A DNA stretch of 37,286 bases from a virus (taxonomy: Duplodnaviria; Heunggongvirae; Uroviricota; Caudoviricetes). Position numbers: made by a program. Positions within the stretch are counted from its first letter, which is position 1. The number at the start of each line of letters is the position of its first letter. The stretch lies in IMG/VR virus record IMGVR_UViG_2869924733_000004; one strand, written 5' to 3'. Positions 24,801-30,800 of this stretch are shown one piece after another.

Positions 24801-27800
24801 ATGTAGGCTTCCTTGAATGCAGCTGCTTTTTTGCCGGTGAAGCCCATCACCAGAAAAACGAAGCCGTTTTTGGTGATTTGGTAGGCGTTATAGGTATTGC
24901 CTCGGTGTTCGAATTTAACCCGCGAAAAGTTGCGGGTTAAGAATTGCTCAGAGCATTCGAGGGATTCTATTTTCTGAACAACATGGTGATGCTGCTTGCC
25001 AAAAAACTCAGCAATCGAAATAGAAGTAGTGACGGCGCGACCATTTTCGATGGTTACGTCAGGGTGAGAAAGGGTAGTAGCCATAATGACATCCTCAAGT
25101 GATAAGTTAATTAACTCACCACCAGAGGTGCTAATCTCATGGGTGGTGAGACGCACAGGGTTAGCACTACCGGTCACTCGAGAACCCGGCCAGCCTTGCG
25201 GCTGCCCCGCACGCCTCACCATAATTTGAATGTGGCTGTGCATTACGCATAAAAAAACCGCTTCAGCGCGGTTATGCGCTCGAGTAACTTTCGGGGTGCT
25301 AATCCCGGCACCCGTTTTATGAGGTGTTCGCCAAATATAGCCCCGACATCACACGCAGTCAATATCGTCCTTTCTCGGAAATGCTTTGGCGGTGCCGCCT
25401 GCACCCCAAAACATTCCCTGTATTGGTCAGCGCCAACTTCCTGCCAGTGTTGCCCGTTCTCACGCCGTTCTCGCTCTCGCGCGGGGATACTCTCTCATCG
25501 ACCGGATCGCACCCGATGATACAGCACGTTTACGTGTAGGGGTCTAAACCGGTCATTGACGCTGTAAAGCTCCAGATTGTTAAAGAGCATTTTGCGGCGG
25601 GTTAAGTCGCGCCGTACGACTGATTTATGTAGCCCTGTGTCAGGGCGCGATGTTTCTGGCTTGGGTAAAATATAATAAGCGCAACTGATCACAGTTAATA
25701 GTAAGACAAATAATTTAATTTTAATCTATGTGATTGATTTTTAGATTAATTTATTTATGTAAAAAATATAAGCGAGGATAATGCAGGTGGTGAGTTATGG
25801 AGGATGCGCAAAGAAAAACCGGCGCTGAGGCCGGTTACTCTGTGTTAGATTTGGTGTGAGGGAACCCCCTGATAACACTAAGAAAAGCAGTGAACAGTCA
25901 AAGAGAACCCAGCGGGCTTGGTGGCTTTTGACAAAAACATCGCCTGTAACTATAATTAGTTGCAATGTAGCGAAGATGAGATTATGTGGGTATGGGGAAA
26001 GCAGATAAGCTACTGGAAAAGTTTTTAAACAGTAAAAAAACGTTTGAATGGGATGAGTTGGTCGTTTTGTTTTCCTCTCTGGGATATGTCAAAAAGGAAA
26101 TGCAGGGCTCAAGAGTGCGGTTTTTCAATGCTGAAATCAACCACACCATATTAATGCATCGCCCACATCCAGAAAGTTATATTAAAGGTGGAACGCTGAA
26201 AGCGATTAAACAGAATCTGAAAGAGGCTGGGGTATTATGAATCATCTAAAATATAAAGGATATTTAGGTACAGTAGAACCAGATTTTGAAAATAATATCC
26301 TGTACGGAAAACTGGCGTTTATTCGAGACCTGGTAACTTATGAGGCTTCTACATTAGCTGAACTGGAACAGGAGTTTAAGACATCGGTTGAGCTGTATTT
26401 ACAGTCTTGTGTGGAGGATGGAAAGGAGCCTGATACCCCGTTTAAAGGTGTGTTTAACGTCAGACTTGATCCAGAACTGCATCGTCGGGTCGCTGAAATG
26501 GCGATGGAAGAAGATTTATCACTGAACGCCTTTGTTAATAAGGCGCTGGAAAAAGAAGTCAACCATCACACAGGGGCTTAATGTTCCCTTCGTCTTTGAC
26601 ATCCTCACCGCCGAAGAATGGGGAATTTACGGCGCACTGGTAAATGGTGGGGCGAGCAGGAGGCAAACAAAACCCGGCACCAAGGCCGGGTTTTGTTATT
26701 GGTGCATTTGGCAGGTTGTAATATCTGGTCCATAAGCCAAAGTAAAAACAGGCTTGTTGATCAAGCCCATGTTCTTTAATGATTGAATCATTTTTCCTTG
26801 CTCGCTAACTTTTTGCTTGCTAAGTATTTCTTCCACTTGTTGTGTCAAGGATTTGTCTTTGTTCATTTATGGCTCACTTGATTGCGACTGCTCCCCGCCC
26901 GCATTGGGCGAGGGTTCTCGGAGATTTTTCGCTGAAAAAGGAAATAAAATAGCCTCCCTGCAAGGTTATTGATATCATCCTGTGAGTTCAATCAAAAGTC
27001 TCATCATTCCACTGCGACTTTATGACCTTTCCGACAAACTGGCAGTTTTCGTTACACTCAATCATGTCGAATCGTGGGTTGAGTGGCTCCAGGTACGCTT
27101 TACCGCTCTCACGAATGAATCGTTTGAAGGTGAATTCATCGCCATTCATTCGGGCCACGCAAAAATCGCCATCCTCAATCTCCCGCTCAGGGTCAACGAG
27201 TATCAGCATCCCTTCGGGGAAACTGGGTTTACCACCCTGCGGCGCGGTCATTGAATGCCCCTTGACCTCCAGCCAGAACGACCTGTCACTGGCTTTTGTG
27301 GTGGTGGAGATCCACTTAATCGCATCCTTTGCGGTGTACGAAAAATCATCCATTGAGAAAGCTCCAGCCTGTACGCAGGAGAGTAACGGATATTCGTAAT
27401 ATTTCTCGAACAGGTTACGCCTGTTTCCCGGTGTGTGGGTACGAATACTGCGTAACAAATCACTCAGATCTGGATTAATTTCTTCCGCAGGAACCTGTAA
27501 TAAAGCCGCAAACTTAAGGGTATTTTCAGTATTTAACGCAATTTTTGCGTTCAATAACTGACTAACAGCCCCCTGCGTTTTGAAGCCGAGGATATCTGCG
27601 GCTTTTTCCTGGCTTAGGGATAGCTGTTTCCGTTTTTCATCCCAGATTTTGCGCAGTCGTTCAGCGTTCTGGATGTCTTTGTCAGTAATTGTAATTTTCT
27701 TCGTCATAGTGCCTCCGATTTTATTAGCAACACAAATATTTATCAAATAGCTAGCCTATTGACATTTAAATCAGGTAAGCTAATATCGGAAAATTGAAAT

Positions 27801-30800
27801 GGGAGGATCTCTATGACTCTTGACGAGTACTTGAGACAAAGCTCTATCAGACAAGCCGATTTTGCGGCGATTGTTGGAGTTTCTCAGGGATTTGTCAGTG
27901 GGGTTATTACAGGGAGATACATGCCTCAGGGGCGGAAAGCCATTGAATGGGCAAAAGCTACAGACTGGAATGTAACTCCCCATGAACTAAACCCGCATGA
28001 CTACCTAAACATGGAAGATGGTATTCCGCTTCATGTAAGGCAAACAGCCTGATAACCCTCCATCGGAGGTGTGAGTGAACAGGCAAATCAAAACGGTTAT
28101 GCCCGATCAGTACTGTGATGCTGATCGGGACTGGATACAGGAGCAATTGTTACAGCTAGACCCGACCACCAGGGTAAAAATTGCAGCAGAGTACGCGAGA
28201 GTGTACCAGGAAGAGTGGGACAAGGAGCCTGTATCGTTCAGGAAGGGCAACAGGGCAAGACGGAGCGCCAACACCCGGTTACGGGTGTATGTCCAGAAGT
28301 ACGCGAGAGCCAGCCGTGGCTGGATGCTTTCGCCAGTAGCGATACGGAAGGAATAGATCTCATCAAGGTGATTATTTTTTGTGAAATGATTTCACATTAA
28401 ACCATTGCACTTGAAATTTTACTAAGAAGGGGGTAAGGGGGCAGATCTGTAACATCCGTGCCTGTAAGGGCACTACCAGAGGAAGGCAGCTCCATAGGTT
28501 AGGTAGATCACTGTATAGGGTGAGATGGTTTCTGTAGAAATTGTTATTATACTAACCATTACGGTGGAAATAGTACCATGTTCATCAAACATGTGGTTAT
28601 CAGCCTGCTCGGAAACAAATTCTACACCGGAAAAGACAAGGTCACGTTTGATTATGTGCTGGCTGCCAAATTGCGTGATGCCGGACTGGCGATCGAACGT
28701 AATTATCTGGTTGATATGGGCAACGGTAAGCGCGGATTCGTCGATATCATGGTCGTTGCCCCATCTGGTGAACGGTGCGCGATCGAGGTGGACAGAGCGT
28801 CACCACGGGCACGTTCAATACTGAAACTGCGCAGACTCAAGCTATACGGCATTCCTGGTATCGTGCTTCTGCGCTGTTCACGTAATCCGGATCAATACGT
28901 TAGCGATGAGATCGACGTGATCCCGGCAACGGGTAAATCACGTAGCAAGGGGGCGTCATGCTGAAAATAATCCCAAACTTTGCTCAGGAGCGCGGTTTAA
29001 ACCAGCTGCGGCACCAGTGGAAACAGCATCGCACGTACCTGATGTATGCACCCACTGGCTCTGGCAAAACTGGTCTTGCAGCATTCGTCACCGCCGGAAT
29101 GGTTGAACGTGGTATGCGAGTGATGTTTGTCTGTCCGTACACCATCCTGCTGAACCAGACAGCGGAACGTTTCACCGAATACGGTTTGCCGTGGGAAGAA
29201 ATCAGTTTTGTATGGCGTGATCACCCTAACTATGACCCGTCACGACTGATTCAGATTGCCAGTGCCGACACGCTGATCCGTCGTGAGTTTCCTAACAACA
29301 TCGATCTGCTGATCATCGATGAAGCACACATGAAGCGTCGTGCGTTACTTGAGGTTATCCGGGACAGAGACATCAGGGTTCTTGGACTTTCCGGTACCCC
29401 GTTCGCAGCCTGGATGGGGAAGTACTACGAATGCCTGATCAAGCCTACAACGATTCGTGAACTTATTCAGCGTGGTGATCTGAGCGATTATGAGTTTTTT
29501 GCCCCCTCAATGCCTGATCTGGCTGGCGTAAAAACCAGTAACACCGTATTTGGACGGGATTACAACGAGGAGCAGCTCGCATCCATCATGGGGAGTTCGG
29601 ATCTGGTTGGCGATATCGTTCGCAACTGGCTTGAGAATGGTGAGGATTTGCCGACGATCTGCTTCTGTGTGAATGTTGCGCATGCGAATTTTGTTACCCG
29701 TGAGTTTTTACAGGCCGGTATTGGCGCAGAGGTGATGACGGCAGATACCCTCCATGATGAACGACAGGACATCATTCGCCGTTTTGAAGAGGGCGTGACC
29801 AAAATAATTGTCAACGTCGGCGTACTGGTTGCGGGATTTGACAGCGATGTTCGCTGCCTGATCTATGCCCGTCCGACAAAATCAGAAATCCGTTGGTTGC
29901 AGTGCATAGGTAGAGCGTTACGTACAGCCCCAGGTAAACAACGTGCGTTGATTTTCGACCATTCTGGCACGGTTCATCGGCTGGGTTTCCCCGAGGATAT
30001 CGAGTATGACGAACTGCCGGGCAAAAATGACGGAATGAAAGCGTCTGCTGGCGGTGGCGAGGTTAAAGCTGAAAAACTTCCCAGAGAATGCCCCAAATGC
30101 CACTTCATGAAGCCTGCTGGTGTACACATGTGTCCCAAATGTGGGTTTCGTCCTCTTGGTGGCGATGATGTGGCAACAGACCGCGATCGAAAACTCTCTC
30201 GCGTAAACAAAGGGAAACGCGAATACAGCCGCGAGGAAAAACAGCGGTGGTGGAGTGAGATCAAGGGCTATCAGAATTACCGCAACGCGACAGGTAAGCC
30301 ACTGAGTGACGGATGGTGCGCTCATACCTACAAAGAGAAGTTCGGGGTGTGGCCTAAAGGCTTCAGTAACGCGCCGCTGCAAACCTCGGTTGAAGTGCAC
30401 AATTTCATCAAGTCAATGAGGTGTACTGGCAATAGCGGACACTACCATTTGTTCTTTTTTTAAGCAGCCATCTGATGATATTTTTCCCTGAAGGCTGCCG
30501 GGGAGATATTCCCCAGACGAGAGTGACGACGCTGACGATTGTAGAAAATCTCAATGTATTCCCGTATTACTGAGATGGCTTCATCCCGGTTATTAAAACG
30601 ATAGTGGCTCAGGCTCTCATTTTTCAGCGTTCCCCAGAAGCTTTCCATCGGAGCGTTGTCGTAACAGTTACCTTTACGCGACATTGATGTTTTCAGACCA
30701 AACTGCTCCTGTATGACCCGGTAATCGTATGCGCAGTACTGTGAACCTCGATCAGAGTGGTGGATTAGCCCGGCAGGTGGGCGCTGGCTCCTGAGCGCCA

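Follow-up and report, generated by a model that had tools for sequence, protein, structure and literature searches.

The stretch of DNA analyzed here, IMG/VR virus record IMGVR_UViG_2869924733_000004 (37,286 nucleotides (nt); hereafter, the window), carries a cI repressor gene and a small, divergently oriented cro-like gene, which lie within the remnant of a prophage related to Shiga toxin (Stx)-converting phages. The cI open reading frame (ORF) spans positions 26988-27746, with the likeliest start codon, the ATG at 27705-27707, being preceded by GGAGG and yielding a product of 239 aa (26988-27707, minus strand), the length of the annotated homologues. The predicted protein consists of an N-terminal helix-turn-helix (HTH) domain (Pfam HTH_3, 3.4e-7), a linker containing the A114-G115 cleavage site, and a Peptidase_S24 domain (PF00717, 1.7e-28) with S152 and K195. 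It matches the structure of the full-length lambda repressor (3BDN) over residues 2-238 (E=4e-74) and structures of the lambda repressor N-terminal domain with E=6e-11, and is 50% identical to lambda cI over the full length, the C-terminal domain being far closer to its lambda counterpart than the N-terminal domain. The residues A114-G115, S152, and K195 align with A111-G112, S149, and K192 of lambda, and the VQAG motif is kept. Thus, as judged by sequence, this is a lambda cI-type (LexA-like, S24) repressor with the HTH domain, the Ser/Lys dyad and the Ala-Gly cleavage site, as had been claimed in a previous sequence-only reading of the window.

Database entry WP_000162429.1, with which the cI protein shares 100% identity, is the repressor of two Stx prophages, the apparently complete Stx2a prophage in E. 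coli JNEC-KY204 (hereafter, KY204) and the Stx1c prophage in E. coli strain 48; each of these encodes helicase, primase, Nin proteins, Q, and stx downstream. At the nucleotide level, the gene differs from that of the KY204 prophage by 6 synonymous and no nonsynonymous substitutions. Three residues separate the protein from the repressor of phage Lys12581Vzw, an Stx2 phage that was induced from E. coli O145:H28 and lysogenizes laboratory strains (PMC6986202). The exact cI sequence is present on at least 1000 contigs. No inactivating change is apparent in the alignment, in agreement with the intact repressor posited by the sequence-only reading. An attempt to assign this cI to a clade or Eru type through the supplements of Fagerlund et al. 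yielded no occurrences and, with 50% identity to lambda, it is not their 61% Clade I sequence.

The cro-like gene (27813-28052, plus strand) is separated from cI by 105 bp, as expected of a small HTH gene divergent from the repressor gene in a lambdoid immunity region, and its ATG follows a GGAGG located 6 nt upstream. The 79-aa product is an all-alpha HTH protein (HTH_3, 1.5e-5) that belongs to phrog_35 ('transcriptional repressor') and resembles the solved Cro proteins 8CO2 and 8C7K. Compared with the E. coli allele, it carries the substitution P65L, just past the part aligned to the solved structures; this allele is found on 166 contigs and is named from Shigella only (S. dysenteriae and S. 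boydii). The next gene, a 93-aa ORF in the position of cII (28075-28356, plus strand), had been included in the range assigned to the switch in the sequence-only reading. It has no Pfam match at E<=0.01, its sole match being to phrog_852, a family of unknown function, so that no membership in the cII family was found; the 'CII' tag attached to it in phage phi346, and there only, comes from an automatic pipeline. We label the product a conserved phage protein rather than cII or a component of the switch.

Predicted operators and promoters

The 105-bp gap between cI and cro contains three 17-bp pseudo-palindromes (no strand assigned) starting at 27722, 27745, and 27769, that is, spaced by 23 and 24 bp, which we predict to be the rightward operator (OR) sites. 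Operator A (OR3-like; TATTAGCAACACAAATA; 27722-27738) lies inside the core of the predicted promoter of repressor maintenance (PRM; TTGATA-17-TAAAAT; 27746-27718, minus strand), at the position of lambda OR3 relative to cI. Operator B (OR2-like; AAATAGCTAGCCTATTG; 27745-27761) overlaps the -35 element of the predicted rightward promoter (PR; TTGACA-16-TAATAT; 27759-27786, plus strand) and touches both -35 hexamers, and operator C (OR1-like; AATCAGGTAAGCTAATA; 27769-27785) overlaps the PR spacer and -10 element. In lambda, the annotated OR3, OR2, and OR1 show the same start-to-start distances of 23 and 24 bp, and the gap to cro is 27 bp, compared with 28 bp between operator C and the cro ATG in the window. 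The center of operator B lies approximately 42 bp upstream of the PRM start deduced from the -10 element; in lambda, the OR2 center is located at about -42 from the PRM start. The PRM -10 element ends 10 nt before the cI ATG, so that the transcript from PRM would, like that of lambda, have almost no leader. The gap thus contains the repeated half-sites sought as a check of the sequence-only reading, arranged as related pseudo-palindromic predicted operators that overlap PR and PRM, and the promoter and ribosome-binding site which that reading attributed to cro were recovered as well.

In the half-sites of the 3 predicted OR operators (TATTAGC, TATTTGT, AAATAGC, CAATAGG, AATCAGG, and TATTAGC), A2 and G6 are invariant; of the lambda half-site TATCACC, A2 is kept, whereas positions 4 and 6 differ. 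In structures of the lambda repressor-operator complex, Q33 and Q44 read adenine 2, S45 reads position 4, and N55, together with the N-terminal arm, reads position 6. The window cI has the same residues as lambda at the positions of Q33, E34, D38, and Q44, and G and I at those of S45 and N55, so that the retention of A2 and the changes at positions 4 and 6 fit the retained Gln44/Gln33 and the replaced Ser45/Asn55 equivalents. The OR operators are identical to those of the intact Stx1c prophage of E. coli strain 48. Promoter-like matches in this region are about as frequent as expected by chance (6 found against 5.6 expected), so the case for the promoters rests on their position and conservation. 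We found no published operator map for the Stx-phage immunity group to which this cI belongs, although the search was not systematic. Operators have been discussed for VT2-Sakai (PMC10742460), but this phage was not used as an operator source because it has O/P replication genes and a different cI, and its records contain no operator features.

A position weight matrix (PWM) built from the 3 predicted OR sites was scanned over the whole window. The best match outside the training sites, at 25696-25712 (12.9 bits, compared with 10.2 for the next best), overlaps the -35 element of a leftward promoter-like sequence and was also recovered independently as a repeat (D7). A second site, 22 bp away at 25674-25690, includes a segment (25675-25689) that fits the strict half-site pattern. 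We therefore predict a leftward promoter, PL (TTAACT-18-TATATT; 25698-25669), with two leftward operator (OL) sites, OLb (25674-25690) and OLa (25696-25712), the whole element spanning 25669-25712 on the minus strand. Given that the score of the best match falls within the range obtained for shuffled versions of the whole window, the argument for OL rests on rank and position, and statistical support for an operator at this second, leftward promoter is moderate.

Relationship to Stx phages and decay of the prophage

Comparison with heteroimmune relatives delineates the boundaries of the module. The Oslovirus Stx phages TL-2011c, P13374, VT2phi_272, and phi346 are 98-99% identical to the window until position 25663 or 25675, after which the sequences diverge completely. 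Phage phi346 shares with the window the C-terminal domain of cI (26974-27399, 95% identity) and everything from 28060 on, but is unrelated across 27400-28059, which encompasses the cI N-terminal domain, OR, and cro, and its OR and OL contain a different repeated motif of its own. The breaks of homology at OL and at the cI N-terminal domain, OR, and cro indicate that the determinants of specificity, namely, the predicted OL and OR, the DNA-binding domain, and cro, are exchanged together as a unit. Such exchange between heteroimmune relatives is the classical definition of an immunity region.

The closest homoimmune relatives are Lys12581Vzw (NC_049917), the KY204 Stx2a prophage and the Stx1c prophage of strain 48 (CP166879), which have the same OR and a cI that is either identical or differs at 3 residues. 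The gene order, too, is that of the window: exo/recT, kil, antirepressor, (hicAB), cI, cro, helicase, primase. These elements are complete, with Q, stx, lysis, and structural genes, whereas the copy in the window stops at an IS600 on both sides and is inverted. Furthermore, the window differs from them by a 5-bp deletion next to OL, an OL allele of its own, and Cro P65L. The source of the immunity module is probably a Stx-converting short-tailed phage of the Sepvirinae/Oslovirus kind.

The sequence-only reading described the prophage as heavily degraded, and this description stands. Approximately 52% of the window is insertion sequence (IS) DNA, namely IS66-family, IS2, and IS3-family elements including IS600, and an IS30-family element nested in IS600. 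The prophage remnant, roughly 9 kb in all, is cut up by these elements and bounded by IS600 copies: the immunity segment (23202-30419, 7.2 kb) is flanked by an IS600 at 21911-23202 on the left (99.8% in self-BLAST, inverted relative to the right copy) and, on the right, by the 2489-bp IS600 with the nested IS30-family element (30415-32903), neither being assigned a strand here. The recT gene is split, its 5' fragment ending at 23202 (23202-23601, minus strand) and its 3' fragment restarting at 32904 in the opposite orientation (32904-33509), followed by an exonuclease gene and a truncated SSB-like gene; this block (32904-34764, plus strand) is inverted relative to the immunity segment. In the intact homologue, the two recT pieces overlap by 3-4 bp, as in a target-site duplication, which, together with their opposite orientation, indicates insertion of IS600 into recT followed by inversion of the 7.2-kb segment between IS600 copies. 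At the other end, the DEAD-box replication helicase gene (28958-30463, plus strand) lacks the last ~20 codons and is fused to IS600 sequence, with phage homology stopping at 30419. The only tail-fiber sequences in the window are fragments (6912-8423, plus strand), and genes for primase, NinB/G/H, Q, stx, lysis, and head/structural proteins were not found within it. With its genes for lytic growth gone or disrupted, the element is, within the window, a defective (cryptic) prophage. Carriage of an IpaH effector gene marks the replicon as one of Shigella or enteroinvasive E. coli. A 7.5-kb stretch of GCA_002943855.1 (CP027027.1) is identical to the window. We place the remnant in a chromosome from the S. 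dysenteriae/S. boydii group of Shigella.

The likeness to the lambda switch extends to the domain architecture and catalytic residues of the repressor, three 17-bp operators at 23/24-bp spacing, their overlap with divergent PR and PRM, and a predicted distal OL/PL that would drive kil and gam. There are also clear differences. The predicted half-site, nA(T/A)(T/C)AG(C/T), differs from the lambda TATCACC, so that the module and lambda would be heteroimmune; in contrast to its lambda namesake, Cro is all-alpha (HTH_3); no more than two OL sites can be made out; no recognizable N, cII, or cIII was found in the window; and the phage type is that with helicase/primase rather than O/P replication. 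Taken together, homology and anatomy make a lambda-like bistable repressor switch a well-supported prediction. It is probable, in our view, that the window contains a lambda-type immunity module devoid of visible sequence damage, comprising cI, a tripartite OR with PRM and PR, cro, and a distal OL/PL, which derives from a Stx phage and persists in an IS600-bounded Shigella remnant. Several observations weigh against this conclusion. Across the window, the strict half-site pattern ANNAGN5CTNNT is not enriched (11 matches against 8.7 expected), so that only its local clustering is informative, and the OL score, as indicated above, does not exceed those of the shuffles. The PL -35 element is TTAACT, as opposed to TTGACT in the phages, and the right half of OLa departs from the consensus. 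The Cro allele has the Shigella-specific substitution P65L. Finally, in 4 of 10 Shigella assemblies (designated L012, L013, L016, and L019), a 1-bp deletion in a run of 5 C within cI (27565-27569) causes a frameshift. Pseudogenization of cI in these strains is the less likely reading: the deletion splits sister genomes, is not distributed according to the phylogeny, and is found in assemblies that have further homopolymer indels, and hence is probably a long-read homopolymer or assembly error.

The tail-fiber fragments adjoin a gene for an IpaH-family type III secretion system E3 ubiquitin ligase (587 aa; 8606-10369, minus strand) and a tyrosine integrase gene (10932-12005, minus strand), and these three may belong to another element, a second prophage remnant. 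The 2489-bp composite of IS600 and an IS30-family element, inserted at the same nested position, is present twice (3427-5915 and 30415-32903, 99.9% identity), one copy splitting an IS66-family transposase gene, and additional IS30-type copies are located at 19762-20994 and 35797-37040. A tandem pair of antirepressor (Ant)-like genes, each encoding 260 aa (13622-15386, minus strand), lies between two IS2 copies, the 5' end of the first being overlapped by an Rfam sRNA-Xcc1 match (78 bits; 14319-14402, minus strand). A fuller version of the same prophage is found in the Shigella genome L016 (CP026875.1; locus 6767-12240), with genes for primase, NinB, truncated NinG, holin, lysozyme, and a lysis protein (PF03245); no gene was called there in the ~700 bp from NinG to holin.

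The predicted PL and PR operons and the possible retention of the repressor

Leftward of PL, the window contains, in this order, an IsrK-like RNA, a C4-type antisense RNA, a Rha-domain gene, a KilR-like gene, gam, and the recT stump. Both RNAs, IsrK-like (25251-25327, minus strand; Rfam isrK, 61.6 bits) and C4-type (25139-25226, minus strand; 78.6 bits), score above the Rfam gathering thresholds and lie in the PL leader. PL is separated from kil by a terminator-like hairpin (25273-25256), that of IsrK, and we identified no antiterminator resembling N. The Rha-domain gene (24446-25243, minus strand) is antirepressor-like, with an antA/AntB antirepressor annotation in strain 48, and its true start is probably an internal Met near 25084, which gives 212 aa. 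The kil gene (24163-24375, minus strand) encodes an intact 70-aa KilR-like inhibitor of cell division with a single substitution, N61H; an identical gene matches Pfam KilR, and homologues are annotated as Kil or cell division inhibitor. This gene is a likely target of PL repression. Between PL and cI, at a distance of 400 bp from the latter, lies an intact hicA/hicB toxin-antitoxin pair (25986-26581, plus strand), which occupies the same position in intact E. coli Stx1c/Stx2a prophages. Rightward of PR, cro and the phrog_852 gene are followed by a phrog_1347 gene and the clipped helicase gene.

The location of C4 and isrK matches upstream of a Rha/Ant-type gene resembles the immI of P1 and P7, where the C4 antisense RNA controls ant, and the IsrK of Gifsy-1, although the immI of P1/P7 is a separate locus, whereas the element in the window is predicted to be embedded in a lambda-type PL operon under cI as an antisense-controlled antirepressor. 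A Pfam Phage_ASH match to the long version of the rha ORF (aa 5-60) coincides with the C4 RNA, so this 'domain' may be translated RNA-gene sequence.

If the module operates as in lambda, cI dimers would occupy the sites of OL and the three 17-bp sites of OR, shutting PR, and with it cro, the phrog_852 gene, and the replication genes, as well as PL, and with it the C4/IsrK leader, the Rha-type antirepressor, kil, gam, and the truncated recT. A dimer at the OR2-like site would activate PRM, and RecA-stimulated cleavage at A114-G115 in the course of the SOS response would lift repression; for such cleavage and for operator binding, the inducibility of Lys12581Vzw, with its cI 3 residues away, is the sole, indirect support (PMC6986202). 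A cell expressing cI would then repress incoming homoimmune phages, for example, Stx2a phages similar to Lys12581Vzw and the strain 48 Stx1c prophage. This expectation requires qualification because a lambda-like immunity region reportedly does not prevent multiple lysogeny in at least some Stx phages, which get round superinfection immunity (PMC3064807). The module may be expressed, confer immunity, or be kept by selection, and retention of cI for immunity or silencing is plausible.

The sequence-only reading went further and held that the switch had been preserved inside the decaying prophage. The switch is indeed structurally intact, but no special preservation of cI is discernible, since intactness extends to every gene of the 7.2-kb segment in the window (gam, kil, rha/ant, hicAB, cI, cro, and those for phrog_852 and phrog_1347). 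Given that the remnant has decayed through insertions of IS elements, inversions, and deletions, as opposed to point mutations, intactness alone is uninformative with regard to selection. Passive survival, whereby no IS happened to strike the switch and no selection on cI is needed, is a serious contender, even if somewhat short of probable, and one that is compatible with a functional cI. Besides the intactness of every gene between the two IS600 copies, it is favored by the low diversity of Shigella copies. Among the 17 copies (14 distinct) that we compared across positions 24401-28760, there are 23 segregating sites in 4,158 bp (~0.5%) outside the variable patches described below, leaving little time for point decay, and the single substitution seen in cI, with ~3 or 4 expected, is not a significant deficit. 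On the other side of the ledger, cI and cro have accumulated only that one substitution in 960 bp (Q223P in cI of one strain; none in cro), and hicAB has no nonsynonymous change, compared with 6 substitutions in 921 bp of rha and the phrog_852 gene (W126* and C198R in rha; Q45*, T31I, L85F, and one synonymous change in the phrog_852 gene), of which the two nonsense mutations, W126* and Q45*, occur in some lineages. This comparison is weak evidence of differential constraint. Passive survival also sits uneasily with the independent truncations by IS from both sides in ten Shigella contexts with the same cro allele, all of which keep kil(-rha)-PL-hicAB-cI-cro; the sample was ascertained through cro, however, which weakens the inference of retention.

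The intact kil/KilR homologue in the PL operon brings up another explanation, namely, that cI cannot be lost because it silences toxic products of PL and PR, such as the KilR-like inhibitor, the antirepressor, and truncated replication genes. The precedent is RacR of the Rac prophage, described as an essential repressor of the toxic ydaS/ydaT in E. coli K-12 (PMC5700373). What the window shares with RacR/DicA-type systems is a repressor surviving in a defective prophage along with a KilR-type division inhibitor, and silencing of a toxic remnant is the role proposed there (PMC5700373). Essentiality has been established for RacR and is hypothetical for the window cI. RacR is not known to have an S24 autocleavage domain. 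Drift of the PL hexamers from consensus in separate lineages, with the -35 element changing from TTGACT to TTAACT in the group that includes the window and the -10 element from TATATT to TATGTT in L015 and TATGCT in L019, might be taken as a sign of selection for silencing, but the hexamers are not over-represented among PL/OL substitutions (by hand count, ~3 of 13 events in 12 of 44 positions). Moreover, the terminator-like hairpin stands between PL and kil with no N-like antiterminator identified and, should the four frameshifts in the C5 run be real, those strains would tolerate the loss of cI with kil intact. Retention by addiction is a doubtful, though still respectable, proposition. We consider it unlikely that cI merely hitch-hikes with the adjacent hicAB pair, which would stabilize the segment. 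The pair is indeed close to cI, intact, free of nonsynonymous changes, and kept in all ten contexts, but chromosomal toxin-antitoxin pairs guard only against large deletions that remove them, not against point mutation of cI or IS insertion.

Variability of the predicted operators among Shigella copies

The distribution of substitutions among the 17 Shigella copies is strikingly uneven: 42 of the 65 segregating sites fall within 202 bp (binomial P ~7e-40). These 202 bp consist of OL/PL (25669-25712), the OR2-like site, and two patches, 28364-28445 and 28532-28590, with 14 sites in the 44-bp PL/OL patch and 3 in the 17-bp OR2-like site (27745-27761). The latter two patches, located upstream of the replication genes, contain GAAAT repeated every 15 bp and a 17-bp sequence that is perfectly palindromic, TGTGAAATGATTTCACA (28380-28396), and could represent an origin with iterons or further operator sites. 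The start codon of the phrog_1347 gene (ATG at 28578) is ATA in L013, L017, and L025. Between the two patches lies an invariant block of 110 bp, with a hairpin, GTGCC-TGTAAG-GGCAC (28458-28473), that could be a boxB/nutR-like element.

Shigella harbors at least 10 OL alleles, which are reproducible in independent assemblies and nested within clonal backbone groups defined by single-nucleotide polymorphisms. Sister genomes that are identical, bar homopolymer indels, over the ~1.9-kb cI-cro alignment are nevertheless one base apart each inside the OL patch. Position 7 shows a C/T polymorphism in all 4 OL half-sites, whereas positions 2 and 6 never vary. Only 16 complete E. coli genomes have the OL type of the window, with 5 of the 7 full-length matches listed sharing one identity value, and 23 phage records likewise have one identity value in common. 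A metagenome scan for further OL alleles yielded one locus only, and we found no relevant publications on hypervariable operators of cryptic prophages.

Such clustering is hard to reconcile with a silent relic, in which the genes are intact yet unexpressed or nonfunctional, for instance, if PRM depended on establishment transcription for its activity or if the circuit were broken by the operator changes or Cro P65L: if nothing binds, there is no obvious reason for substitutions to concentrate in predicted operators. The G/A polymorphism at 27717, directly beside the PRM -10 element, and the failure to identify cII or a promoter of repressor establishment are in line with this possibility, but the intact Stx1c prophage has an identical cI and the same three OR operators, and we regard a silent relic as quite improbable.

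Tentatively, the predicted repressor-binding sites could be the fastest-evolving DNA of the remnant, either because the cI-operator circuit is live and subject to recurrent positive selection or because they form a local mutational hot spot; we think this possible but do not favor it strongly. On one reading, selection would act on the tuning or silencing of the operators or PL, or would stem from an arms race over immunity with homoimmune Stx phages. On the other reading, repressor-bound or quasi-palindromic DNA would itself be a strong local hot spot. A hand count on the OL alleles, bearing on template switching within quasi-palindromes, showed that derived changes raise operator symmetry about as often as they lower it. 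Exchange with a diverse pool of alleles is a third candidate explanation. Short-tract conversion from E. coli alleles is unlikely, as the Shigella OLb alleles that have C at position 7 retain G where the KY204 allele has the adjacent T, and all keep the 5-bp deletion. A diversity-generating retroelement is also unlikely: the changes occur on both strands, and a repeat search in 2.9 kb around the switch, which included neither a dedicated search for reverse transcriptase nor a window-wide repeat search, revealed no template repeat.

The survival of repressors in cryptic prophages is a familiar phenomenon, and RefSeq already includes this cI, so that the presence of an intact switch, as such, adds little. 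Nevertheless, the predicted operators and promoters provide a first model for this Stx-phage immunity group. Furthermore, a lineage of non-type-1 S. dysenteriae/S. boydii once had a Stx-phage-like prophage and still holds its immunity determinant, which could affect productive infection of these strains by homoimmune Stx1c/Stx2a phages. The hypervariability centered on the operators is the only part that might repay more work: if real and not recombinational, it would be a natural case of rapid cis-regulatory evolution, or of mutagenesis linked to binding sites, in a domesticated prophage.

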